Below the pieces are notes generated by a model. It worked only from the letters and a program-made list of their open reading frames with translations, made no database searches and was not told the DNA's origin. Shown here piece by piece: positions 3,893-46,446 of a DNA stretch of 64,000 nucleotides (position 1 is the first letter of the stretch; each line of letters starts with the position of its first letter). The DNA is from an uncultured Oleiphilus sp. Lineage in GTDB: Bacteria; Pseudomonadota; Gammaproteobacteria; Pseudomonadales; Oleiphilaceae. Location of the stretch: the NCBI GenBank assembly GCA_963974595.1, contig CAXBDA010000001.1, positions 39,657 to 103,656 of the forward strand, given 5' to 3'. A program made the position numbers and the translations under genes.

Positions 3893-5038
3893 CTAAAGCC
3901 CCATTTGCTTCGCTATTAATTCATTCATAATTTCATAGGTCCCACCACCTATGGATAGAATTCGGTTGTCTCGCGATAAACGCTCGACCACCGTTTCTCT
4001 CATATAGCCCATGCCGCCAAAAATCTGTACCGCATCATAAGTCACTTTATCGCTCACTGATGTTGCAAAGTTTTTAGCCATACCAATCTCTTTTAAGACT
4101 GACTGCCCTTGCTGCATTTTTGATGCTAAGCGATAGGTGAATGCCTTGCTTGCCTCTAACTGTGTCGCCATTTCAGCAAGCTTGTGCCTGATCACTTGAA
4201 ACTTACCAATAGGCCTGCCAAAGGCCTGTCGAGATTTAACATAGCGCATTGATTCTTCAAGCGCTATCTCACTTGTCATATTAGCCATGACGCACAAGCT
4301 CAAACGCTCCATTTCAAAATTAGACATAATGGCAATAAACCCTGAATTTTCAGGGCCTATTAAATTATCAACAGGGACACGGCAATCCTCAAAGAATAAC
4401 TCAGCAGTATCGCTAGCCCACCAGCCAGTCTTTTTCAAAGGATTACCACGACTAAAGCCAGTCCGGCCTCGCTCGATTAACAGCAAACTTATGCCACTAT
4501 ACCCGTCACCACCTGTTCTCACAGCTACTGTATAATAGTCTGCTCGATGTCCGCTCGTAATAAAGGTTTTAGAGCCATTTACGACATATTCACTACCTTG
4601 TTTCACGGCACGCGTTTTCAGGTTAGCTACATCTGATCCACCACTAGCTTCAGTAATCGCCAACGCAGAAATCTTTTTACCACTAAGCACATCTGGCACA
4701 ATTCTATCTTTTAGTGAATCAGAGCCCCACTTCCAAACAGGAGGCAAACCGATATCCAGTGAACCCAAACTCGCAACAAAGCCGCCGGAGGTAGAACGCA
4801 TCAATGCCTCTGAAGCAGCAATTTTGCTGAAAATATCAGCATTAGTACCGCCATATTTTTCAGGGTGACCTAAGCCTAAAATACCAGCAGCACCAGCTTT
4901 CTGGTATATTTCGCGAGGAAACGTACCCTCTTCTTCCCATTCGTCAATGTAAGGTTTAACTTCTTGATCGATAAAGCGCTCAACATTCATGCGTATTAAG
5001 TTTTGCGTTTCACCAAAGTAGTCTTTGTTATTATTCAT
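3893..5038 (-). CDS. acyl-CoA dehydrogenase
   Basis: 381 aa with ACAD hallmarks: ALAITEASGGSDVANLKT, KTFITSG, QIFGGMGYMRE, and catalytic-base context GGTYEIM. Confidence 0.9.
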   Translation of the reverse strand: MNNNKDYFGETQNLIRMNVERFIDQEVKPYIDEWEEEGTFPREIYQKAGAAGILGLGHPEKYGGTNADIFSKIAASEALMRSTSGGFVASLGSLDIGLPPVWKWGSDSLKDRIVPDVLSGKKISALAITEASGGSDVANLKTRAVKQGSEYVVNGSKTFITSGHRADYYTVAVRTGGDGYSGISLLLIERGRTGFSRGNPLKKTGWWASDTAELFFEDCRVPVDNLIGPENSGFIAIMSNFEMERLSLCVMANMTSEIALEESMRYVKSRQAFGRPIGKFQVIRHKLAEMATQLEASKAFTYRLASKMQQGQSVLKEIGMAKNFATSVSDKVTYDAVQIFGGMGYMRETVVERLSRDNRILSIGGGTYEIMNELIAKQMGL

Positions 5039-5108
5039 ATAAAATTCACCGTATGATGTTCAACTTATCACGACAGTTAACAGCTAGAGGAAGAAGCAGC
5101 TCATTGCT

Positions 5109-5957
5109 TTAGCCTTTTCTTCGCGCCATGAAGGCCAAACGCTGAAGTAAATGTACATCTTGTTCATTTTTAATTAATGCACCATAAAGTGGTGGTATGG
5201 CTTTTGAAGGGTCACGCTCTTGCAATACTTTTTCTGACATTTCATCTGCCATAAGTAACTTCAACCAATCTATTAATTCACTTGTCGATGGCTTTTTCTT
5301 TAAGCCGGGCACTTTTCGAACATCAAAAAACACATCCAAGGCTTCTTTTAATAACTCTTTTTTCAAACCCGGATAATGTACATCGACAATCTTCTCCATT
5401 GTGGCTTCGTCCGGGAAGTTAATATAATGAAAGAAACAGCGGCGCAAGAAAGCATCGGGCAGCTCTTTTTCATTGTTACTAGTAATTAAAACGATGGGGC
5501 GATGTTTTGCAATAACACGTTCTTGTGTTTCATAAACGTAAAACTCCATTTTATCGATTTCTAAAAGTAAATCGTTAGGGAATTCAATATCGGCTTTATC
5601 TATCTCATCTATTAATAGAACGACTTTTTCATTTGCATCAAAAGCTTCCCATAATTTGCCTTTAACAATGTAGTTCGAAATATCATGCACCTTATCATTT
5701 CCCAGCTGCGAATCGCGCAAACGTGAAACAGCATCATATTCGTACAAGCCTTGTTGAGCCTTGGTAGTCGATTTAATATGCCATTGAATCAAATTTGCAC
5801 CGAGAGACTCAGCCAGTTGCTCAGCCAACATCGTTTTTCCGGTTCCTGGCTCTCCTTTAATCAACAAAGGTTTTTCTAGCGAAATGGCGGCATTCACAGC
5901 CATTTGCAAATCATCAGTTGCGACATACTCGTTAGTACCTTGGAAAACCATATACAC
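5109..5957 (-). CDS. MoxR/CbbQ-like AAA+ ATPase
   Basis: 282 aa. Walker A is GEPGTGKT and Walker B is LLIDEIDKA. Size and order match single-domain MoxR-class ATPases. Confidence 0.85.
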   Translation of the reverse strand: MYMVFQGTNEYVATDDLQMAVNAAISLEKPLLIKGEPGTGKTMLAEQLAESLGANLIQWHIKSTTKAQQGLYEYDAVSRLRDSQLGNDKVHDISNYIVKGKLWEAFDANEKVVLLIDEIDKADIEFPNDLLLEIDKMEFYVYETQERVIAKHRPIVLITSNNEKELPDAFLRRCFFHYINFPDEATMEKIVDVHYPGLKKELLKEALDVFFDVRKVPGLKKKPSTSELIDWLKLLMADEMSEKVLQERDPSKAIPPLYGALIKNEQDVHLLQRLAFMARRKG

Positions 5958-6169
5958 ACCTTTTTAAACAAGAAAGTTACTTAACAATGGATGCACACAT
6001 ATTTTTGAATGTTTGTTGCATCACATAAAAAATTTTTATCTAACTATAAAAACGACATAAACTAAAATTGTATGCTAATTTCATATCAAACAGAAAGACA
6101 AAACGCTTAAGCAAACAGCCATCAATGACCTTAATCACCTTAAAACGTATATTTACCAGAACCATAAAG

Positions 6170-6796
6170 ATGCCTATGCATAGCAAAAATATTCAAGTTG
6201 ATAGAACAACAAAAATAACAAACCGCCTAGCCACAATGATTCTATGTTTCGCTTCTTTTTCAGTTTGTGCTCTTGATAATACAGATAGTGATACAAGGCA
6301 AGCTGTAAACGTGAAACAGTCTTTTCTATCATGTTCAATCATCACCAGTGAACACCTGACAGCACTTCAACTGTATCAGCGAGGCATTCCTAGAGAACTT
6401 GCCGCAGATTCGTTACCCAATATTTCACGAGACGGAAAAAAGAGACTGGCTTACATCTACGATTGGGTCAAAGAAATTGGTATTTTAAACGCCTATGCCG
6501 ACATCAATACAAATTACGCAAGATGCTCGACGTTAGTCTACAAAAAGCAAGGCCGCCCTGCGCCAGATTTAAAAGAATATGCTTATTATTTCTGCTCTGG
6601 CGAAAATAAAATCAGGTATGAGATAATGCTTAAACTGGATCGTAATCATTCCATCAAAGAAATCACAAAAGATTTACCTGCGTCATTTCTTTCTGTGGCA
6701 CAGCGCTACAAAATATTGATAAAAGAGAAAGGAACCTTAGCCGCTTTTGACTTAACGGCGAACAACTTAAAGGCATGTTTACAACAAATAGAATAA
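6170..6796 (+). CDS. hypothetical secreted protein
   Basis: The ORF is open from 6068, but a signal-like segment (MILCFASFSVCALDN) follows the internal Met codons, so the start is uncertain. No recognisable family. Confidence 0.4.
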   Translation: MPMHSKNIQVDRTTKITNRLATMILCFASFSVCALDNTDSDTRQAVNVKQSFLSCSIITSEHLTALQLYQRGIPRELAADSLPNISRDGKKRLAYIYDWVKEIGILNAYADINTNYARCSTLVYKKQGRPAPDLKEYAYYFCSGENKIRYEIMLKLDRNHSIKEITKDLPASFLSVAQRYKILIKEKGTLAAFDLTANNLKACLQQIE

Positions 6797-31103: not shown

Positions 31104-32999
31104 ATGCCAATGACCCAACAGCTACCCCAACATACCCAGGCTTTACAACTCAGTCGTCGTCGCTTCGTGCAAGGGCTAGCCGCAGGTGGTGTCCTTGCGG
31201 CAGCGCCCGCCTGGCTACAGGCGGCGATCAATAGCAACACAGATCTGGGCACAGCACCCGTACTCAGTGGTCGTGAAATTGATCTCGTGGTCGCTGAAAC
31301 ACCGGTCAACTTTACCGGTGTGACGCGCATGGCCACCACCATTAACGGCTCGATACCCTCACCCACTTTGCGGCTGCGCGAAGGCGACGAAGTGATCATT
31401 CGGGTTACCAACCGCTTGCCAATCGCGACCTCAATTCACTGGCACGGTATCCTCTTACCCTACCAAATGGATGGCGTGCCAGGCATCAGTTTCAAAGGCA
31501 TCCCACCGGGTGAAACCTTTACCTATCGCTTTACGCTCCGACAAAGTGGCACTTACTGGTACCACAGCCATTCCGGTTTTCAGGAAATGACCGGTATGTA
31601 TGGCGCTTTAATCATTGAGCCACGTCAGGGTGAACGCATCAAAGCCGACCGAGATTTAGTAGTGCAACTTTCCGACTGGACCGATGAAGACCCGATGCAT
31701 GCTTTCAGCAAACTGAAAATGCAAAGCGATATCTACAATTTTAATCAGCCCACGTTTTTTGAATTCACCAAGGATGTCTCAACAATGGGTTTGCAAGCCG
31801 CACTGGAAAAACGCCAGATGTGGAACCGGATGCGTATGAACCCAACCGATTTGTCCGATCTGTCGGCAGCGACAATGACCTTTCTGATGAACGGCACCAC
31901 ACCGGCTGGCAACTGGAACGGAATATTCAAGCGCGGTGAAAGCATTCGCCTTCGCTTTATTAATGCCTCCAGTAACAGCTTTTTCGATGTACGCATTCCC
32001 GGCTTAAAGCTGACCGTAGTACAGGCCGACGGTCAAGATGTAGAACCCGTTGCTGTTGATGAATTTCGTTTCGGCCCCGGTGAGACTTACGATGCTTTGG
32101 TCGAACCCGAAGAGGACGCCTATAGCATTTTTGCCCAAAGCATAGATCGCAGCGGTTATGCGCGTGGCACACTGGCGCTACAGCAAGGCTTATCGGCACC
32201 CTTACCGGCGCTCGACCCCGTGGAGTGGTTAACCATGGCCGATATGATGGGCACCATGGGTCAGGGCGGGATGGCTCAGGTGGGAATGGATCATGCCGCC
32301 ATGGGTCATAACGCTATGAAGGACATGAAAGGCATGAATAGCTCAGGCATGGCCGGCATGATGGGCTCTATGAGCCAAGGCGGCATGGATCACAGTCAGC
32401 ACGGTGCTATGGCCATGGATCACAGCAAACATAGCATGCAGAACGCAACACAAAACCCATTAATCAAACCCTCAACAACCGTCAAGCACGCGCGCACTGA
32501 ATATGGCGCATCCGTGGATATGCGGGTCGATATGCCCAGCACAAGGCTTGATGATCCGGGTATTGGCTTGCGTAACAATGGCCGCAGGGTATTAACCCTG
32601 GCAGATTTAAAATCCATTGATGGCGTGCTGGATGACCACCGCCCGCCCACGAAGGAACTGGAGTTGCACCTGACCGGCAATATGGAACGCTACAGCTGGT
32701 CATTTGATGGACTGGAGTTTGGAAAAAGCAGCCCCGTGTCCCTGCGCCAGGGTGAGCGCGTCAGAATCATTCTACAAAATGACACCATGATGACCCATCC
32801 CATGCATCTGCATGGAATGTGGAGCGAACTGGAGACCGACCAAGGTGAGCTGCGGGTTCGCCGGCATACCATTCCGGTGCAACCAGCCCAACGCATCAGT
32901 TTTCTGACGACGCCTCACGACCTCGGTCGCTGGGCTTGGCATTGTCATTTACTATTTCATATGGACGCGGGCATGTTCCGTGAAGTGGTGGTGTCATGA
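31104..32999 (+). CDS. copA: copper-resistance multicopper oxidase CopA
   Basis: 631 aa with a Tat signal (SRRRFVQGLAAGG), copper-site motifs HWHG, HSH and HPMHLHG ... HCHLLFHMDAGM, and a Met/His-rich insert (MGQGGMAQVGMDHAAMGH...). Confidence 0.93.
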   Translation: MPMTQQLPQHTQALQLSRRRFVQGLAAGGVLAAAPAWLQAAINSNTDLGTAPVLSGREIDLVVAETPVNFTGVTRMATTINGSIPSPTLRLREGDEVIIRVTNRLPIATSIHWHGILLPYQMDGVPGISFKGIPPGETFTYRFTLRQSGTYWYHSHSGFQEMTGMYGALIIEPRQGERIKADRDLVVQLSDWTDEDPMHAFSKLKMQSDIYNFNQPTFFEFTKDVSTMGLQAALEKRQMWNRMRMNPTDLSDLSAATMTFLMNGTTPAGNWNGIFKRGESIRLRFINASSNSFFDVRIPGLKLTVVQADGQDVEPVAVDEFRFGPGETYDALVEPEEDAYSIFAQSIDRSGYARGTLALQQGLSAPLPALDPVEWLTMADMMGTMGQGGMAQVGMDHAAMGHNAMKDMKGMNSSGMAGMMGSMSQGGMDHSQHGAMAMDHSKHSMQNATQNPLIKPSTTVKHARTEYGASVDMRVDMPSTRLDDPGIGLRNNGRRVLTLADLKSIDGVLDDHRPPTKELELHLTGNMERYSWSFDGLEFGKSSPVSLRQGERVRIILQNDTMMTHPMHLHGMWSELETDQGELRVRRHTIPVQPAQRISFLTTPHDLGRWAWHCHLLFHMDAGMFREVVVS

Positions 33000-33010
33000 G
33001 GAGCGATAGA

Positions 33011-33871
33011 ATGAAAACCAAACATATGCAACAGCTCATCAGCTCGGTACTCGCAGTCTCTGTCTTTCATGCACCGGTCTTATTAGCTGAAATGGACAGT
33101 AAGCCTATGTCTCATGAAATGGGGCAAATGCAGGGCGGTAGTGCACCCGATAATGCCCGCGACCCTCACGCCTATTCCGATGGCTACACCCTGACAGAAG
33201 GCCCCTATGCTCAATCTGGGCCCCGACAACTGAAACTGGCCGACGAACACGCCTTCTGGGCGGTTCTAGGTGACCGTCTCGAATACTATGAAGACAGTGA
33301 CAGCGGGATATTTGATTTACAAGCTTGGTATGGCACTACCTACGATCGTTTTGTGGTCAAAGCAGAAGGTGATTTCGACGATAAGCGGCTGGAAGAAAGT
33401 CAAACTGATTTGCTTTGGGGTCATGCACTCAGTGCCTATTTTGACGTTCAATTAGGCCTACGTTTGGATCAGTACGATGAAGGTCGTGACCGCCAGTGGC
33501 TCGCGCTCGGTATTCAAGGCTTGGCTCCCTATTGGTTTGAGCTGGATATCACCGCGTACGTCGGTGACAGCGGGCGTACAGCTCTGACCGTCGAAGCAGA
33601 ATACGAACTGCTACTGAGCCAAAAACTGATCCTGCAACCCCGCTCAGAATTTACACTCTACGGTAAGGAAGACCTCAAGAACGGCCTTGGCAGCGGTTTT
33701 TCGGACTTTTCTCTTGGCCTGCGTTTGCGTTATGAATTCACCCGCCAGTTTGCACCGTACCTAGGTGTGGAATGGTTTGAGACCTATGACGATACCGCCA
33801 ATTATCGACAAGCTGCTGGACAAGATCGTAGCGATACACAGCTTGTCGCCGGATTGAAGTTCTTGTTTTAA
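33011..33871 (+). CDS. copB: copper-resistance outer-membrane protein CopB
   Basis: About 286 aa with a signal peptide, an N-terminal Met-rich stretch (MSHEMGQMQGG) and a beta-barrel ending in F. It follows copA. The ATG at 33011 has the SD GAGGAG 7 nt upstream; an alternative ATG at 32996 overlaps the copA stop. Confidence 0.88.
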   Translation: MKTKHMQQLISSVLAVSVFHAPVLLAEMDSKPMSHEMGQMQGGSAPDNARDPHAYSDGYTLTEGPYAQSGPRQLKLADEHAFWAVLGDRLEYYEDSDSGIFDLQAWYGTTYDRFVVKAEGDFDDKRLEESQTDLLWGHALSAYFDVQLGLRLDQYDEGRDRQWLALGIQGLAPYWFELDITAYVGDSGRTALTVEAEYELLLSQKLILQPRSEFTLYGKEDLKNGLGSGFSDFSLGLRLRYEFTRQFAPYLGVEWFETYDDTANYRQAAGQDRSDTQLVAGLKFLF

Positions 33872-33890
33872 GCTTAGATTGCCTAGTACA

Positions 33891-33929
33891 AGAGACCTTT
33901 GCATAAGGGCTGCGCTTGCAAAGGTCTCT
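33891..33929 (+). terminator. perfect 13-bp hairpin downstream of copB (possible terminator)
   Basis: AGAGACCTTTGCA ... TGCAAAGGTCTCT. The T tract after it is weak. Confidence 0.45.
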
Positions 33930-34201
33930 GATGATAATACCGCCACCCTAATCAATTAAAAGCCCTAACGGATAAGGGCCTTACCGCCCATAGAAAGCAG
34001 CATTTCGTTGCAAGCTGACAAGCAGCCATTTAACAATACTGCAAATATACAGCTCAGGCAAAAAGGTGTCAGATCTATGTGTGCCACCTTTTCTGATAGG
34101 CAGTTGGGAAAAGTAATGTTAAATAGATCACTAAATGATGATGTAAGAAAGAGAAAGGTCACCTGTTTTTCTCTGGGCGCGGCCTTGTTTTTAACTCTCA
34201 C

Positions 34202-40007: not shown

Positions 40008-40189
40008 TATTCTTCATCCGTATAGTTGGCCTAAGACATTAATAGAATAAAGAAAGAAGATGCGCACTAGCAATGATAAAAAGTGACTATAAAATTGATG
40101 AATTCTTGCATATAAGCTTTCACCTTCTTATGGCACATCAATATTTAAAAAGCATCACTTCAATATTTAAAAAACAGCACCTCAATAGC

Positions 40190-40220
40190 AAAAAAGCCGA
40201 TGATCACGAAGATCATCAGC
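40190..40220 (-). terminator. rho-independent terminator after the sensor kinase gene
   Basis: The minus strand reads GCTGATGATCTTCGTGATCATCGGCTTTTTT. Confidence 0.65.
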
Positions 40221-40265
40221 TTTAGATTGATAATTATTATGTGATTAGCTCACATTAAAAGAAAT

Positions 40266-43200
40266 TCAGAATGTAATTGTTTCTTGATAGAAAGATTTAG
40301 GGATGCGGATATTGGTTGTAAATGATCTGAAATCATCATCTTCATTGCCAGCACTCAGTATCACTTCAATACTGCCACCTTCTTTCTCAAGGAAGCCTTT
40401 TACAGCGTCCATACCAACACCTCTTCCCGAGACATCCGTTACTTCGTCTGCTGTTGAAAAACCTGAAGAAAATATCAAGTTAGCAATTTCAGCTGCGCTT
40501 GGCTTAGGATCAGATGCTTGATAAATACCTTTTTCTATCGCCATCTTATAAATCCGGCTAATCGCAATACCGCGACCATCATCTCTTACAGCTAAATTAG
40601 CGCCTTGTTCATCGGGTGTAACATCTAAAGTGATGATACCACTTTCAGGTTTACCTTTTTCAAGACGTTCTTCTATGCCTTCAATACCATGATCCATAGC
40701 GTTTCTAAATACATGCATGAAGATATTATTCAAGGTTGAACTGGCATGGCTCTTAATCAGAATACCTGCATTATCAATTTTAACCTCTGGTTTCCCTTTA
40801 CCTAATTGCTCAGCCAAAGAGTGCGCAGACTGAATTACATCAGAAATCACCTCTTCTAAAGGCTGCGCCTCCATCGTCATAAGCATACTATAGGCCTCAG
40901 AAACAACACCTTTAACATCTTGACTCATATCAGAGCCAGTCAATGATCTAATATTTTCTAACCACGTTGATACACGTGCAGGGTCAAGTGAAATACCACT
41001 TGCTGCTTCACCATCACGGCCTAATTTCTCCCTGAAGACCATAGCGTATTTCGCTAAGATTTCTTCAGCCCCAGAAAGCTCTGCTAACAATGACTCTTGA
41101 TTCCACTGAACATCTTCATTCTTACGTAAATCATCATAAGTACTCTCAACTTCATGAACAATATCGGTAACCTGGCTCAAACCGTAAGTACGCGCATTAC
41201 CTTTTACGGTATGCATAGATCTAAACAAGTTAGCAATAATATCTAAATCTTTCGTTGCATTGGCTTCGATTAGTTGGCGGCATTCTGCCAAGAACTCTTC
41301 AGCTGAACTTAAGAAGTCACTAAATTTAGCAGCATCAACAGCGAGTATTTCACCAATAATGGCCAATTCACGCTTCTGACCTTCAGCTTCGGCTTCAAGC
41401 GCTTTCAACTCGGTAACATCTCTTACTGTTACCATTAACTTATCAACCTCACCAGACTCACTAATAATTGGATCCCAATCCAGCTCTAGAATCTTTTCAC
41501 GATCATCTTCCATTTTGATGACCATCTCTGTCATCAAACAATGAGAGTTAAAGTCATACATCATTTCATCTTCACCAACAATCGCATCAACGCCCGTGAT
41601 ATTTTGATCGACAGAATCAGAACCCGCCGTTGTATTACTAAATAACAAGTCTGCAAAGTTTCGATCGGCAATACGATCTGTTTCGAATATTTTCTCTAGG
41701 TATGAAGCATACTCAGGGTGAATTAGGCCACCGGCAGTAATGGTAAATAAACCTTGGTGCATATTCGCCATCATATTGGCGATATCGTTATTCTTCTGTC
41801 TTAACTCAGCCGTTCTCTCTTCGACTTTCGCTTCAAGGTTTCTGTTTTGCTCTTCAATCACTTCACGCATACGTATGCTTTTGATCGTAGTCACTAGAGA
41901 ACGGGCAACCGAAGAAACAAACTCATAATCACTATCGGCAAAACTGACGTTCTTAACGTCTCCCGATAAGTTAATCACGCCCACTAGAATATCTTTATCG
42001 ACAAGAGGCACACATAATAGAGCCCTTTCCGAACCGGCATCATTTGATACAAAGTTTTTATCTTTAGAAGTATTTTGTACAAAGATAATTTTCTTCGTTT
42101 CAGCCGCTTTACCTAATATGCCCTGGCCCATTTCAAATTTGGCAGCAGAAGATCCAGCGTCAATTGCTTTCGGTGGAAAGTGTGCCTTGACTTCCAACTG
42201 TGATTTATCATTGGTTAAATAAACTGAGCCTTGAGCGACACCTATTTTGTCATGCATACTTTGTAAAACTTCTTCTAACGCAGTATTTTGGCTTTGCGCA
42301 CCAGCAAGTGAACGACCTATAGAGTTTAATTTTGCCAAATCGATCATTTTCTTACGTATTGCCAATCTCATAGAATTAAAGTTTTGAGCGGCTAACAAGA
42401 TAAGTACAATCAACATGACAATTGATAGTTTGATACCGAAATCAAGGCTATCAGACACTTTGCCTTGTAATTGGTTAAACTGCTCATCGGCTGCTTTCAA
42501 TAGCTTGTCTAAAGAATCAATTGCTTTGGTAACAGATGCATCTGCTTCATCTAATTTGGCCTTAGCAACCTCTATTTTCTCTAATTGCTTCAACTTATGA
42601 TCAGCAATTGAGGGTGACTTCATGACATGTTCACTGAGATCTGCATATGCTGTATTAGCGATTGGTACCAAACCTTGTTCATCAAATTCAGAAAATACCA
42701 TAGCGCCCTTATCAAACCAGGACTTAGAGTCGTTAATCGAGAATGTAAAATTACCCATACCACCACTGACTAGGCCCATATCCTGAGTAATTTTAATTTC
42801 ATCAATGGTTTTAAATAAGTTATTGATTAAAGTAATTGATTGATTAGCAAAGCCGATAACCAGTTCCATATCATCCTGGTGCTCTTCAGGCGCCATGTAA
42901 TACTGTATTTCATCTATCGATGCACCCACGCCATCAATAAGGTTAAACAGGATATCCACCTCGCCTAACATTCTGTTTCTAGCCGCCAACACTTCGGTTT
43001 TGGCTGTAAACATGTCGATCACGGCTTCACGATAGTCATCGTAATTTTCCTTTACTTCTTTTACGAGAACAGACTTCTCTGCATCTTTCTGAGCAAGTAA
43101 AGCAAGGCTTTGATAACGCTCTTCGAATCGTGAAACACCCGAATTAAAAGACGTTTTATAAGCATCAATCTGATCTTGGTTTCCGGCATTGAATGCAAGT

Positions 43201-43403
43201 GAACTCAGTTTCGCCAGTTTTAGCAGCTGGATCTGTACATCATTACTTTCTTTCACTACCGGCACAGCCGTTTCATTCACTAGAGAAGAAGAACCATTTA
43301 TATCATTAAGATTCCACAGGGATGAAAGCCCTGACGTTAATAGAAGCAGGATAATAATGGCAAAACCAAGACCAACTTTTTGATTAAACGATAATTGAAA
43401 CAT
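40266..43403 (-). CDS. membrane sensor kinase: MCP-like periplasmic helical domain, GAF, PAS, Hpt and CheA-type (P4) catalytic domain
   Basis: 1045 aa. TM1 is about aa 10-30. A ~290-aa helical periplasmic region follows, then TM2 at about aa 324-340. A GAF-like region spans ~375-510 and a PAS-like region ~540-665. The Hpt motif is FRSMHTVKGNARTYG (His731). The CheA-like ATP-binding core reads HVFRNAMDHGIE ... VRDDGRGI ... GFSTADEVTDVSGRGVGMDAVK. No P2 or P5/CheW-like domain and no receiver. Confidence 0.8.
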   Translation of the reverse strand: MFQLSFNQKVGLGFAIIILLLLTSGLSSLWNLNDINGSSSLVNETAVPVVKESNDVQIQLLKLAKLSSLAFNAGNQDQIDAYKTSFNSGVSRFEERYQSLALLAQKDAEKSVLVKEVKENYDDYREAVIDMFTAKTEVLAARNRMLGEVDILFNLIDGVGASIDEIQYYMAPEEHQDDMELVIGFANQSITLINNLFKTIDEIKITQDMGLVSGGMGNFTFSINDSKSWFDKGAMVFSEFDEQGLVPIANTAYADLSEHVMKSPSIADHKLKQLEKIEVAKAKLDEADASVTKAIDSLDKLLKAADEQFNQLQGKVSDSLDFGIKLSIVMLIVLILLAAQNFNSMRLAIRKKMIDLAKLNSIGRSLAGAQSQNTALEEVLQSMHDKIGVAQGSVYLTNDKSQLEVKAHFPPKAIDAGSSAAKFEMGQGILGKAAETKKIIFVQNTSKDKNFVSNDAGSERALLCVPLVDKDILVGVINLSGDVKNVSFADSDYEFVSSVARSLVTTIKSIRMREVIEEQNRNLEAKVEERTAELRQKNNDIANMMANMHQGLFTITAGGLIHPEYASYLEKIFETDRIADRNFADLLFSNTTAGSDSVDQNITGVDAIVGEDEMMYDFNSHCLMTEMVIKMEDDREKILELDWDPIISESGEVDKLMVTVRDVTELKALEAEAEGQKRELAIIGEILAVDAAKFSDFLSSAEEFLAECRQLIEANATKDLDIIANLFRSMHTVKGNARTYGLSQVTDIVHEVESTYDDLRKNEDVQWNQESLLAELSGAEEILAKYAMVFREKLGRDGEAASGISLDPARVSTWLENIRSLTGSDMSQDVKGVVSEAYSMLMTMEAQPLEEVISDVIQSAHSLAEQLGKGKPEVKIDNAGILIKSHASSTLNNIFMHVFRNAMDHGIEGIEERLEKGKPESGIITLDVTPDEQGANLAVRDDGRGIAISRIYKMAIEKGIYQASDPKPSAAEIANLIFSSGFSTADEVTDVSGRGVGMDAVKGFLEKEGGSIEVILSAGNEDDDFRSFTTNIRIPKSFYQETITF

Positions 43404-43570: not shown

Positions 43571-44335
43571 ATGACCAATAAACTCATTCTTTTTTCTGTT
43601 GCCGCATTTGCTATAGGTGCCATTTTGGTTTTTCAATTAAGCCGAAAACACTTTTCGATAAAAATGCAGCTATTAACAGAACAAAACACATCTTTGGAGG
43701 CTGAGCTATCTAAGACTCAGCAAGAACTCAAGACTGAAAAATATAATTTAGACGAAGCTAACACCTCTCTAGAAGCAGCTAATCATGAGAATCATTCTCT
43801 CAACTCGGAAATAGATGCGCTAAGAGACCAATTAAGACACGAAAAAGAATCGATTCAAAATGAAATGCAAGCCGAACTCGACTCTCTTCGTAATAGCAAT
43901 CAGGCAGAAAAAGTCGAGCTAAACGACAAGTTATCGCAAGTAAAAGATAACCTTAATGACCTCGCAGCCTTGTTAGTGACCTTCGAGCGCTGGCATGAAA
44001 GCTTGACACAACTCATGCTTCATAACGCAGAAATGCACAAGCAAAATCAGGAGTTTTTCAATATCGTTAAACAGATTGTCATTCTTGCACTTAACGCTGC
44101 GATAGAAGCCGCTCGTGCCGGTGAACATGGTAGAGGCTTTGCTGTCGTTGCTGACGAGGTTCGAAATTTAGCCATGAGAAGCCAGGAACTTTCTGAGAGT
44201 TATAAGGAAAATCTTAATAAAAACGACTTCTTGACAACGGCAACATTCCAAGACATTCAGGCTGGCGGCAAAATGATTTTGACCGATGTATTCTCTACCT
44301 CTGAAATCGTTAAAAGCATGCTTGAGAAACTATAA
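43571..44335 (+). CDS. miniature MCP-like protein (TM anchor, coiled coil, MCP hairpin-tip segment)
   Basis: 254 aa with an N-terminal TM segment ([17 protein letters not shown]) and a coiled coil. The highly conserved MCP tip [30 protein letters not shown] (aa ~171-203) has only ~50 aa after it. Confidence 0.75.
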
Positions 44336-44384
44336 GGAAACATCACATGCAAAACTTTTCTTTCAAGTATTTAATAGGTTAGCC

Positions 44385-44951
44385 ATGTTAGTTAATGATG
44401 AATTCAAAAATGAAATCAAGAAAGCATTTCATAGCAGTTTTGAAGAAGCCTTTGTAGCTGGCTCAGATACATCACGCTGGCAATTTAAAGAGAAATCAAC
44501 ACTAGAAAATCTAGATACCAAAGAGTTCTATGTCTTAACGATGTCTTCACAGCTTTTCAGAATCTTTATATTTCTACATTTTTCAAAAAATGATGACACG
44601 GAAAAGTTTGTGAGCAGCGTATTGAATTTAACATCTGCCAAGCTGGATGAAGATAAGTTTTATGACTATTTAGGCGAAGTCGGTAACGCCTTTTTAGGGT
44701 CAATTAAGCGCGATTTAGGTAAACACATACCAAGCCTTGGCATGTCTACACCAAATAGACTAAGTATTGACTGCCTAAAGTATATGAAAAACCTTAATTC
44801 AAATTTTGAATCACACGCCATTTCAACGTTTGATGACAAAGTACTATTTTACTCTAGTGTCTATTTAGTTGCAGATGAAGAACTAAATATACATATAGAT
44901 CGTCATTCTCTCGAAAATGAAGTTGACTCTGGTGAACTTGAGCTATTCTAA
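44385..44951 (+). CDS. CheX-like protein (putative CheY-P phosphatase) with C-terminal DSGELELF tail
   Basis: It contains DYLGEVGNAFLGSIKRDLGKHIPSLGMSTP, which fits the CheC/CheX/FliY signature D-x3-E-x2-N-x21/22-P. About 188 aa from MLVNDEF. The ORF is open from 44286 (221 aa), which would overlap the upstream gene. Confidence 0.6.
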   Translation: MLVNDEFKNEIKKAFHSSFEEAFVAGSDTSRWQFKEKSTLENLDTKEFYVLTMSSQLFRIFIFLHFSKNDDTEKFVSSVLNLTSAKLDEDKFYDYLGEVGNAFLGSIKRDLGKHIPSLGMSTPNRLSIDCLKYMKNLNSNFESHAISTFDDKVLFYSSVYLVADEELNIHIDRHSLENEVDSGELELF

Positions 44952-44994: not shown

Positions 44995-46002
44995 ATGTCT
45001 GATACAACACATATAGTTAGCAAAATTCTGGTGCATGAATGCAATGATGATGCACTTCTTGCATTAAAAGATGTCTGCACCGAACATAAACTTGTCGGCT
45101 TAAAAGTTAGTACGGGTAAGCATAATATTGGCTTAAAAGACGCGGCAAATGAAATTAATGATGTTCTTAACTCCAATGTAGACTTGGGTGCAATTTTTCT
45201 ATCGGAAGCACCGGACCCTATTGGTTTTACAGGTAGTGAGTTATGTTTAAAGATTCATCATACGCGTCCTGAACTACCTATTTTTCTAAGAAGAACAGAA
45301 AAACAAGATGGCAGTGATCTACCTGAAGATGTTCAGAAAGCAATTACTGGCTACTACACGCTTGATAACATAGGAATACTTGATGAATTAATCAGAACGT
45401 ATGTCTGTAGCATGTATTACCCTGTTGAACTCGCGCAAGGAATACAAGAGATTTCGTTTGATGCCTTTTCAAATATCATTACCGACACTGCTATCAGCTG
45501 TGATCAGCCCTACTTAGTGAAAGACCAGATTATTTATGGTGAGCTATTTAGCCTTATCCCCCTGGAAAGTGAATGGTGCAGAGGCTATATGATGCTTCAA
45601 ACCACAGAAAGTGAGATTCTTGATTTAATTCGATCGGGTAAAACACATATCACATCCACCAGGCCTGACTCTCGCGATACCAATGCCGTATTGAATGAAA
45701 TTACAAATATGATTTGGGGTGGCATTAAATCTCGCTACTTCCAAAGTGGTGAATCACCTAGCGAAGCGCATAGAACTCAAGTCCCGATCATTGTAAACCA
45801 CTTACAAAAACACATATCGTTTGGTTCAACAGAACCTCAGCTGTGTTTTAAATATAATCTGAGCACACCAGATAATACGTTTTCTTCTATCACGATCTAT
45901 CAGCGGTTAGTGTTTAACTTAAGCTGGTCTCCTGAAAAATTCGCAGAAAGTGACAAGGCAGTAGATGATTTTGTAGATAGCGGTGAACTTGAATTATTCT
46001 AA
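44995..46002 (+). CDS. degenerate receiver-like domain fused to CheX-like domain, C-terminal DSGELELF tail
   Basis: 335 aa. The N-terminal ~125 aa have REC-like strand/helix periodicity (KILVHECNDD ... LGAIFLSE ... LPIFLRRT). The phospho-acceptor Asp and conserved Lys are not evident. The C-terminal half has a CheX-like NEITNMIWGGIKSR ... VPIIV segment. It ends in VDDFVDSGELELF. Confidence 0.5.
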   Translation: MSDTTHIVSKILVHECNDDALLALKDVCTEHKLVGLKVSTGKHNIGLKDAANEINDVLNSNVDLGAIFLSEAPDPIGFTGSELCLKIHHTRPELPIFLRRTEKQDGSDLPEDVQKAITGYYTLDNIGILDELIRTYVCSMYYPVELAQGIQEISFDAFSNIITDTAISCDQPYLVKDQIIYGELFSLIPLESEWCRGYMMLQTTESEILDLIRSGKTHITSTRPDSRDTNAVLNEITNMIWGGIKSRYFQSGESPSEAHRTQVPIIVNHLQKHISFGSTEPQLCFKYNLSTPDNTFSSITIYQRLVFNLSWSPEKFAESDKAVDDFVDSGELELF

Positions 46003-46077: not shown

Positions 46078-46446
46078 ATGGCACAAATCTTAGTAGTTGA
46101 TGATTCAGCAACTGTAAGAAACGAAGTAAGTTCTTTCATCAAAAGTCACGGCATGACTGTCGAAGTCGCTGTAGATGGTAAAGATGGCTTGGATAAATTA
46201 AAAAAAGACCCAAGCGTTAAGCTAATCATATCAGACGTAAACATGCCAAATATGGATGGTTTAACCATGGTCGAGAAAGTTCGAAACGAACTTGGAAACG
46301 CTACCGTTAATATTATTATGCTAACAACTGAAAGTGACCCGCGCATGAAAGAGCGCGGAAAAGCAGCAGGCGTGAAAGGCTGGATAGTTAAGCCTTTCAA
46401 AGGCGACAATGTGGTTGGCAGTATTAAAAAGTTAATTGGTGCTTAA
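46078..46446 (+). CDS. single-domain CheY-like response regulator
   Basis: 122 aa with all canonical REC residues: DD (VVDDS), phospho-Asp (ISDVNMPNMDG), T (MLTTE) and K (VKPF). Confidence 0.92.
   Translation: MAQILVVDDSATVRNEVSSFIKSHGMTVEVAVDGKDGLDKLKKDPSVKLIISDVNMPNMDGLTMVEKVRNELGNATVNIIMLTTESDPRMKERGKAAGVKGWIVKPFKGDNVVGSIKKLIGA

Follow-up and report, generated by a model that had tools for sequence, protein, structure and literature searches.

A transmembrane sensor kinase with a CheA-type catalytic core in an uncultured Oleiphilus, apparently a class III histidine kinase

The chemotaxis kinase CheA is normally described as a non-sensing enzyme that is switched only within a lattice of receptors and CheW. 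A second group with a related catalytic domain, the class III histidine kinases (HKIII), is reported to have been named from genomics by Adebali et al. in J Bacteriol in 2017. HKIII proteins reportedly combine a CheA-type catalytic domain with sensory domains and have neither a recognisable dimerisation domain nor a CheW domain, while their systems are said to comprise a single-domain response regulator, CheX and, often, an unorthodox soluble chemoreceptor. Reportedly, pilT is found in every HKIII genome, and many of these genomes lack chemotaxis genes. Here we analyse a minus-strand open reading frame (ORF) of 1045 codons at 40266-43403 of a 64,000-nucleotide stretch of DNA from an uncultured Oleiphilus sp. 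(contig CAXBDA010000001.1 of assembly GCA_963974595.1, positions 39,657 to 103,656; the window). The encoded kinase appears to belong to HKIII: it has a CheA-type catalytic domain together with sensors, no dimerisation domain that Pfam recognises, and adjacent genes for a single-domain CheY and for CheX-like proteins. The gene is another member of a kind known from genomics and does not define a new kind, and, seen together with the genes for CheY, CheX and a stub chemoreceptor beside it, its architecture appears not to be a one-off fusion. We consider it likely that the protein is a functional HKIII-type membrane sensor histidine kinase, in which the ATP-binding domain P4 phosphorylates His731, the CheY receives the phosphoryl group and the CheX-like proteins remove it.

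Domain anatomy and catalytic residues

In the Pfam scan the 1045-aa protein matched GAF at residues 370-505, Hpt at 695-769 and HATPase_c at 895-1019, with no match to HisKA, H-kinase_dim or CheW. The NCBIfam CheA models cover residues 829-1020 only, and a sequence search of the PDB matched the protein to CheA P4 (E 1e-26 to 1e-32) and to CheA P1. A full-length AlphaFold2 (AF2) model, built from a 72-sequence alignment, has a mean predicted local distance difference test score (pLDDT) of 79. The domains follow one another in the order first transmembrane helix (TM1), periplasmic helical domain of ~290 aa, second transmembrane helix (TM2), GAF, long helix, PAS-like domain, Hpt with His731, short hairpin, P4. 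The features of the gene are as follows; "homologues" are 72 proteins of 47-93% identity, and "diverse members" are 59 far more divergent representatives of the class.

40266-43403, minus strand: whole gene, 1045-aa sensor kinase, apparently of HKIII type (ORF listing; domain scans; 72 homologues)
43314-43376, minus strand: TM1, residues ~10-30 (hydropathy windows up to 2.15)
42447-43313, minus strand: periplasmic all-helical sensor domain, residues ~31-319, 4HB/HBM-like (4HB_MCP_1, 26.8 bits; weak HBM match, E 0.0028; AF2)
42378-42446, minus strand: TM2, residues ~320-342, followed by the basic stretch MRLAIRKKM (hydropathy windows up to 2.48)
41889-42296, minus strand: GAF domain, residues 370-505 (Pfam GAF_2 5e-12, GAF 3e-11)
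41763-41888, minus strand: long connecting (signalling) helix, residues ~506-547 (AF2 helix 490-547; C-terminal part kept class-wide)
41415-41762, minus strand: PAS-like domain, residues 548-663 (AF2 alpha/beta fold; weak PAS_4 match, E 0.037; in 52 of the 59 diverse members)
41019-41342, minus strand: Hpt, phosphotransfer domain of CheA-P1 type, residues 688-795 (Pfam Hpt 1e-10; PDB matches; AF2 four-helix bundle)
41211-41213, minus strand: codon of His731, the predicted phosphorylation site (invariant in all 72 homologues and in the 59 diverse members)
40866-40997, minus strand: predicted short helical hairpin, P3', helices 808-821 and 828-845 (AF2 of a fragment; Foldseek; forced global hhalign)
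40281-40865, minus strand: CheA-type P4 ATP-binding domain, residues 847-1041 (PDB CheA P4 matches; Foldseek; N, G1, F and G2 boxes intact)
40193-40223, minus strand: intrinsic terminator-like hairpin right after the stop codon (13-pair stem, then a T-run)

Because Kyte-Doolittle windows above 1.6 are confined to residues ~4-33 and ~316-349, apart from a borderline window within the GAF domain, the protein is predicted to have two transmembrane helices flanking a segment of ~290 aa. The simplest topology would place the N-terminus inside, some 290 residues in the periplasm and some 700 in the cytoplasm. In the AF2 model the periplasmic domain consists of seven long helices (pLDDT ~90), consistent with a 4HB- or HBM-like sensor, and TM2 continues into a helix. 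The Pfam model 4HB_MCP_1 reaches 26.8 bits at residues 7-133, just below its cut-off of 27, and some homologues have clear matches to 4HB_MCP_1 or TarH. The preliminary description of this DNA had proposed just such an arrangement, with two transmembrane helices and a helical sensor resembling that of a methyl-accepting chemotaxis protein (MCP) followed by GAF and PAS domains, and it is borne out by hydropathy, AF2 and the near-threshold 4HB_MCP_1 match. GAF is recognised by Pfam, and the PAS is best called "PAS-like", the safe wording for an assignment drawn from the predicted fold and the weak PAS_4 match. A predicted helix, residues 664-687, bridges the PAS-like domain and the Hpt.

His731 lies within FRSMHTVKGNARTY, on the second helix of the four-helix Hpt in the AF2 model. 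When the Hpt region was searched alone against the PDB, every match to the Hpt core at E <= 0.1 was a CheA P1, the P1 of Rhodobacter sphaeroides CheA3 or a synthetic protein built from CheA P1, and no ArcB-, YPD1- or LuxU-type Hpt appeared among these matches. The top match, "BRIC1" (6ff6), was rejected as a solved relative, being itself the synthetic protein of CheA P1 units. Residues H731, K734, H750 and E753, which we take to be the counterparts of the His/Lys/His/Glu network of CheA P1, are invariant in all 72 homologues.

The ATP-binding boxes of P4 are equally well kept. Invariant in the 72 homologues are H897, N901, D904, H905 and G906 of the N box; D941, D942, G943 and G945 of the G1 box; F978, S980, G981, F982 and T984 of the F box; and S992 to G997 together with D999 of the G2 box. 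H731, K734, H750, E753 and most of the box residues are still invariant in the 59 diverse members. Foldseek aligned the full-length model with isolated CheA P4 structures at template modelling (TM) scores of 0.8-0.86, and a model of residues 797-1045 with P4 structures at 0.69-0.75. Across the class, the distance from the phospho-accepting His to the N-box His is 158-172 residues, with a median of 166. The earlier assignment of a CheA-type P1 (Hpt, His731) and P4 to the C-terminus is thus one on which Pfam, NCBIfam, PDB matches and Foldseek agree.

The kinase ends right after P4, and domain scans find neither a P2 nor a P5 in it, as had been proposed. The two findings that would have spoken against that proposal, a non-CheA HATPase with a HisKA H-box and a frameshifted P5/CheW domain downstream, were not made. 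No HisKA match exists in the protein, and a frameshifted P5 was rejected in view of the 259 bp that separate the gene from the next one downstream, a thiolase gene, the terminator after the stop codon and the lack of a CheW match in the window. A CheW-family search of the whole 3.27-Mb assembly gave 10 matches, all on other contigs and none within the window. Between the kinase terminator and the thiolase gene, at 40130-40200, lie two or three imperfect direct repeats of ~22 bp (TTTTTAAATATTGAAGTGATGC / TTTTTAAATATTGATGTGCC). Elsewhere in the window, the stretch 32001-34000, where two ORFs of 631 and 291 aa lie on the plus strand, has a GC content of 0.52, against ~0.40-0.45 for the rest.

The transmitter core and its separation from CheA

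The preliminary description had questioned whether the short segment between Hpt and catalytic domain could form a P3-like dimerisation hairpin. That doubt stands insofar as neither Pfam nor local hhalign detects a dimerisation domain; a cryptic HisKA or H-kinase_dim domain was rejected as a candidate, since Pfam found neither in the isolated linker and fragments even at E <= 10. It does not fit with AF2, Foldseek and a forced global profile alignment, which together indicate a shortened P3-like hairpin. The fragment comprising residues 797-1045 was modelled alone with AF2 from a 77-sequence alignment of fetched loci (pLDDT 86.5, predicted TM score 0.79; hairpin pLDDT ~80-84). Its two hairpin helices measure 14 and 18 residues, against 26-28 residues each for the P3 helices of canonical CheA (PMC10782961). 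The top 31 Foldseek matches of the fragment are all CheA; alignments to CheA P3P4 and P3-P5 structures (4xiv, 1b3q) cover 250-262 columns at E ~1e-13 to 1e-16, where P4 alone accounts for ~195 columns, and for the class I kinases CpxA, ZraS and DivL the values are no better than E ~1e-8 and TM ~0.4. The full-length model similarly aligns over ~254 columns with the P3P4 of Thermotoga maritima (4xiv) in a Foldseek search of the PDB.

Profile alignments locate both the truncation and the C-terminal end. Local hhalign of the family with the CheA of the same genome ends at IRIPKSFY, opposite IRLPLTLA, the hinge between P4 and P5 of CheA. A global alignment was forced between the Hpt-to-N-box linkers of 37 class members and 16 canonical CheAs; it sets ISLDPARVSTWLENIRSL opposite LRVSVDKVDQLINLVGEL, leaves a gap of ~20 residues at the tip of the hairpin and continues from there in the second helix. 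Nowhere in the class core is conservation lower than in the hairpin, which has a mean column identity of 0.26. Judged from these models and alignments, it is probably a truncated P3 that has lost ~20 residues at its tip.

Residues 680-1045 served as query in an exhaustive HMMER search of 1.84 billion representatives of clusters at 50% identity, which returned 2,069 clusters at E <= 1e-30. In the best 150 of these the match spans nearly the whole query and stops within a few residues of the protein's C-terminus. Core-matching proteins range from ~350 to 2,005 aa. Their records are labelled as Oleiphilaceae, Marinobacteraceae, Ketobacteraceae, Acidobacteriota, SAR324 or Oligoflexales and bear generic names ("GAF domain-containing protein", "ATP-binding protein", "Hpt domain-containing protein"). 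All 59 of the diverse members, which were chosen as representatives of this spread, carry Hpt and HATPase_c in Pfam, and none carries CheW or H-kinase_dim/HisKA. Their N-terminal inputs are HAMP (20), GAF (8), 4HB_MCP (5), 7TMR-DISM (4), PAS, CHASE5, Y_Y_Y or TarH, and long members begin with Pkinase-AAA_16-GAF, Reg_prop/Y_Y_Y or 7TMR-DISMED2. Judging by these sequences, the core appears to be a portable transmitter that serves behind many sensor types.

Because the PAS-like block is present in 52 of the 59 and is as conserved as the two catalytic parts (mean column identity 0.52, against 0.52 for Hpt and 0.51 for P4), the unit that defines the class consists of signalling helix, PAS-like domain, helix, Hpt, short hairpin and P4. 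The GAF columns are missing from most of the 59, and the GAF domain is a lineage-specific input outside the class-wide core, as is the periplasmic bundle of this kinase. As a separate observation, three giant proteins, P0121 (4858 aa), P0144 (2330 aa) and P0165 (1950 aa), match the Hpt-P4 query in 13-31 separate stretches; presumably they carry many repeated Hpt-like units before a single P4.

In a survey of 13,673 CheA sequences, P1, P3, P4 and P5 form a core present in all, with CheW in 100% (Berry, Andrianova & Zhulin 2023, PMC10782961). The same survey holds that CheA has no sensor domain, and fusions to transmembrane, PAS or GAF segments go unmentioned in it (PMC10782961). Of the features that define CheA, the window kinase has a P1 with a phospho-accepting His and a CheA-type P4; it has no P5/CheW-like domain, and it does contain sensor domains. 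Because it lacks P5 and carries sensor domains of its own, it is not a CheA by the definition of Berry et al. 2023 (PMC10782961).

The genome from which the window comes encodes three canonical CheAs (two on contig 53 and one 1,741-aa ChpA-like protein) in addition to this one kinase. These three were compared with the class together with 13 CheAs from three other carrier genomes and those of Escherichia coli and T. maritima, 18 in all. Searched with the window P4, class members reach 118 bits or more and the 18 canonical CheAs 76-100 bits. In a quick maximum-likelihood tree of P4, a single branch splits 42 class members from the 18 CheAs with a support of 98 in the Shimodaira-Hasegawa-like approximate likelihood-ratio test (SH-aLRT); the CheA sample is mostly gammaproteobacterial and the tree is unrooted, so that it does not decide which group is ancestral and which derived. 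As far as P4 sequences go, the tree shows the class nested in none of the sampled CheA lineages. If it were to branch outside all CheA classes once rooted, the class could be an intermediate between classical sensor kinases and CheA.

A neighbouring module with a stub chemoreceptor, CheX-like proteins and CheY

A divergent operon of four protein genes starts 168 bp upstream of the kinase gene:

43571-44335, plus strand: "mini-MCP", 254 aa, with an N-terminal membrane anchor, a coiled coil and, of the MCP hairpin, the tip only (MCPsignal 1e-19)
44286-44951, plus strand: CheX-like protein A (CheXa), 221-aa ORF (weak CheX match, E 0.011; same position in the module conserved)
44995-46002, plus strand: CheX-like protein B (CheXb), 335 aa (CheX 1.6e-8)
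46078-46446, plus strand: single-domain CheY-like response regulator, 122 aa, the presumed phosphoryl acceptor (Response_reg 5e-25; best NCBIfam match CheY; conserved in the module)

The mini-MCP retains a near-invariant MCP tip, and its N-terminus is transmembrane-like in 43 of 45 orthologues. The first ATG of CheXa overlaps the mini-MCP gene by 50 nt; because orthologues measure 185-200 aa, against 221 aa for the ORF, the true start is probably ~34 codons further in, at the Met of MLVNDEF.... The two CheX-like proteins, otherwise dissimilar, share the C-terminal octapeptide DSGELELF (44925-44951 and 45976-46002).

To see how often these genes accompany the kinase, we used a pattern scan of 185,579 species genomes with the family-specific PAS-Hpt region, which returned 112 stretches and 80 loci. 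The hosts are Oleiphilaceae (the closest, at 93%), Hahellaceae, Allohahella, Ketobacteraceae, Pseudomonas, Aquipseudomonas, Kangiellaceae, Marinobacteraceae, Alteromonadaceae, Marinibactrum, Gynuella and Moraxellaceae, along with the betaproteobacterial Chitinivorax and Rhodocyclaceae. Culturable carriers include Allohahella sp. A8, Aquipseudomonas guryensis SR9, Pleionea mediterranea DSM 25350 and Marinibactrum halimedae NBRC 110095. All four neighbour genes stand beside the kinase, in three gene arrangements, at 38 of the 80 loci. Another 8 loci have a partial module, mostly cut by contig ends; 18 have none despite at least 3.5 kb on both sides, often with a second paralogue; and at 16 the flank is too short for a judgement. 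The same order, namely kinase, 240-aa MCPsignal protein, 185-aa CheX-like protein, 322-aa protein and 121-aa receiver, was found on a contig of a metagenome-assembled genome (MAG) labelled Acidobacteriota, a label that is unverified. No CheW was found at any of 85 related loci searched with the four CheW proteins of the window's genome.

Kinase and module also co-occur at the level of genomes. Among 201 genomes sampled evenly from the order, the kinase class is present in 10, CheXb-type genes in 7 and both in 6 (Fisher p 1.7e-8), and the sole genome with CheXb only is 81% complete. Physical linkage of module and kinase is not universal: in a complete genome of the same order (G038) the CheXb-type genes lie at ~1.46 and ~3.45 Mb and the class kinases at ~2.51 and ~2.55 Mb.

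Several loci depart from the common layout. In Marinobacteraceae bacterium S3BR75-40.1 (L002/L032, ~4365-6740) the kinase is divergent from genes for a 203-aa protein, a PAS-GGDEF diguanylate cyclase and a 122-aa receiver; this variant module contains no mini-MCP or CheXb, and the PAS-GGDEF protein stands in their place, which suggests a cyclic di-GMP output in some lineages. On a SAR324 contig, two class kinases lie beside a MalT-like regulator. A gammaproteobacterial MAG (L084, 2-12351) has three tandem class kinases of 1179, 1431 and 1434 aa with no CheY, CheX or mini-MCP nearby. In a Ketobacteraceae MAG of 6.37 Mb (L001/L035) the module is followed by two tandem paralogous kinases of 1046 aa each, and a third copy lies at another site of that genome (L039). 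Finally, in an Oleiphilaceae MAG (L021, 6456-9650) a stop codon breaks the kinase frame up into pieces of 794 and 270 aa, which would mean a pseudogene or a fault in the assembly.

Proposed mechanism, rival explanations and comparison with known kinases

If the kinase works as an HKIII-type membrane sensor, it would probably do so as a homodimer held together by the periplasmic helical bundle, the transmembrane helices and the long cytoplasmic helices. Periplasmic and GAF signals would pass along continuous helices to the class-specific PAS-like domain, which would relay them to a CheA-type transmitter made up of P1 (the Hpt), the shortened P3-like hairpin and P4; there, P4 would bind ATP and phosphorylate His731 on P1. 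P1 is predicted to be held between the helix on its PAS side and a linker of ~12 residues to the hairpin, tethers that appear short and largely helical. Because P1 is tethered at both ends by short linkers, regulation is more likely to change the position of P1 with respect to P4, in the manner of classical sensor kinases, and control through a P5/CheW/receptor lattice seems less likely than sensor-driven helix movements that gate the encounter of P1 with P4. From His731 the phosphoryl group would move, with no P2 domain to provide docking, to Asp53 of the single-domain CheY encoded alongside, and the two CheX-like proteins would strip it off quickly, making for a fast, resettable signal.

Several observations weigh against this reading or against parts of it. 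The AF2 models are of monomers. The local hhalign of the family with the CheA of the same genome begins at residue 838, the end of the second P3 helix, and the forced global alignment has low confidence in the first hairpin helix. For 18 class kinases no module lies within 3.5 kb, which means that a kinase need not have its CheY partner next to it. Nor does the proposed mechanism account for the conservation of an MCP tip where both CheW and P5 are missing. Lastly, a search of 8 million papers, a collection that omits most subscription journals, found one that cites the 2017 study and no experimental work on the HKIII class. The search likewise found no relevant literature on transmembrane, atypical or non-canonical CheA or on Hpt-HATPase kinases. 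Two candidate relatives were rejected: the Halomonas protein described as a "non-canonical CheA" has a P5 and is of Wsp-like type, and the "GAF-HK" group of Pseudomonas syringae consists of phytochrome-type class I kinases.

The MCP tip is the starting point of the rival explanation that survives best, one that we nevertheless regard as unlikely. According to it the kinase is not receptor-independent: the tip of the mini-MCP would plug the module into ordinary chemoreceptor arrays, with CheW or CheA encoded elsewhere, or would itself regulate the kinase, and the whole would form an accessory arm of chemotaxis. The near-invariance of the tip, the anchor in 43 of 45 orthologues and the position of the mini-MCP beside the kinase at the 38 complete loci and in the Acidobacteriota-labelled MAG are consistent with this, as weak evidence. 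So is the presence of 6-39 CheW domains elsewhere in each of 25 genomes tested (24 with the module and one SAR324 genome without), which is weak evidence because CheW is common in these motile taxa anyway. The kinase, however, has no P5 and has its own sensors, no locus contains a CheW, and the 18 kinases mentioned above have no mini-MCP nearby. Many HKIII genomes, moreover, reportedly lack chemotaxis genes altogether. A more elaborate proposal, confined to the HKIII branch that bears the mini-MCP, would combine three claims, namely that the half-length P3 still dimerises, that the PAS-like domain takes over the regulatory job of P5, and that the anchored stub docks the module onto chemoreceptor arrays through CheW encoded elsewhere. 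Taken jointly these are, we think, rather improbable; if true, a self-sensing kinase would inject a second CheY signal at the array.

It is very unlikely, in our estimation, that the Hpt is instead a phosphorelay intermediate fed by the receiver domain of another kinase and that the ATPase domain is regulatory or not a kinase domain at all. This is the usual role of an Hpt in hybrid kinases, and Pfam sees only a generic Hpt here. Yet the kinase contains no receiver domain, the PDB matches of its Hpt are all CheA P1, the CheA-specific K734, H750 and E753 are invariant, every ATP-binding box of P4 is kept, and the distance that separates the Hpt from P4 varies little among class members.

Still less can be said for a conventional class I kinase whose DHp/HisKA domain (DHp, dimerisation and histidine phosphotransfer) is cryptic and whose Hpt match is incidental, an explanation we hold to be highly improbable. 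The succession of sensor, coiled coil, PAS and transmitter does resemble class I design, and Foldseek gives long alignments to YF1 and phytochromes, but no HisKA match was obtained and the fragment's best structural matches, all of them CheA, far outrank CpxA, ZraS and DivL. The protein stops exactly at the position of the P4-P5 hinge of CheA, as would a decayed, non-functional CheA that lost P5 by truncation, a notion scarcely credible and already contradicted by the conservation data, given the same C-terminal end in all of the best 150 of 2,069 clusters, the invariant catalytic residues, the terminator after the stop codon and class P4s that group apart and are unscattered among the sampled CheAs.

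A functional HKIII-type sensor kinase, the reading we prefer, would matter in several respects. In this class the catalytic core of CheA is joined, as an interchangeable transmitter, to sensor domains of ordinary types, with neither CheW nor P5. It comprises ~2,000 clusters at 50% identity, with MAG labels that span several phyla, and is invisible to CheA surveys, since those use the CheW domain as their selection criterion. Phosphorylation of P1 by P4 outside an array could be studied in a simple way with a soluble Hpt-P3'-P4 fragment, and a conserved stub receptor in a CheW-less operon poses a concrete puzzle.

Set beside the reported features of HKIII, the locus differs on three points. Its stub chemoreceptor is membrane-anchored, whereas that of HKIII is reportedly soluble; CheW is encoded in all 25 genomes tested, whereas many HKIII genomes are said to have no chemotaxis genes; and structure prediction points to a shortened P3 hairpin and not to the complete lack of one. 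On a further point there is agreement, pilT (TIGR01420 above cut-off) being present in 26 of 26 genomes, the window's own included, a weak test given how often these taxa carry pilT. Three details may exceed the published description, namely the truncated P3 hairpin, the integral PAS-like domain and a membrane-anchored stub receptor in genomes that always encode CheW.

Class I kinases such as the LOV-kinase YF1 (4gcz) and the bacteriophytochromes share the arrangement proposed for this protein, with sensor, continuous signalling helix and transmitter in a parallel dimer, and Foldseek gives them long alignments. Their transmitter, however, is a DHp joined to a catalytic and ATP-binding (CA) domain, with the phospho-His on the dimerisation helices, whereas in this protein an Hpt of its own, with four helices, carries the His, and the ATPase belongs to the CheA type; a class I DHp with an H-box beside a CA domain was not found, there being no match to the HisKA family. 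The layout of ArcB-type hybrids is also absent, for the kinase has no Response_reg domain and its Hpt precedes the ATPase domain.

A further comparison is with CheA itself. R. sphaeroides CheA3 and CheA4, which are split or atypical, demonstrate that signalling can survive a rearrangement of CheA domains, and the P1 of CheA3 (3kyi) is among the sequence matches of the Hpt; both, however, retain P5, work in a chemoreceptor cluster with CheW and are not known to have sensor domains. With canonical CheA (E. coli and T. maritima; 1b3q, 4xiv, 1i58, 6s1k) the kinase shares the fold and catalytic residues of P1, the fold of P4, all ATP-binding boxes and a predicted hairpin before P4. It differs from canonical CheA in lacking P5 and P2, in a predicted hairpin of about half the length and in having its own transmembrane, GAF and PAS-like sensors, and where CheA carries P1 on long flexible tethers, this kinase appears to hold it on short helical linkers.

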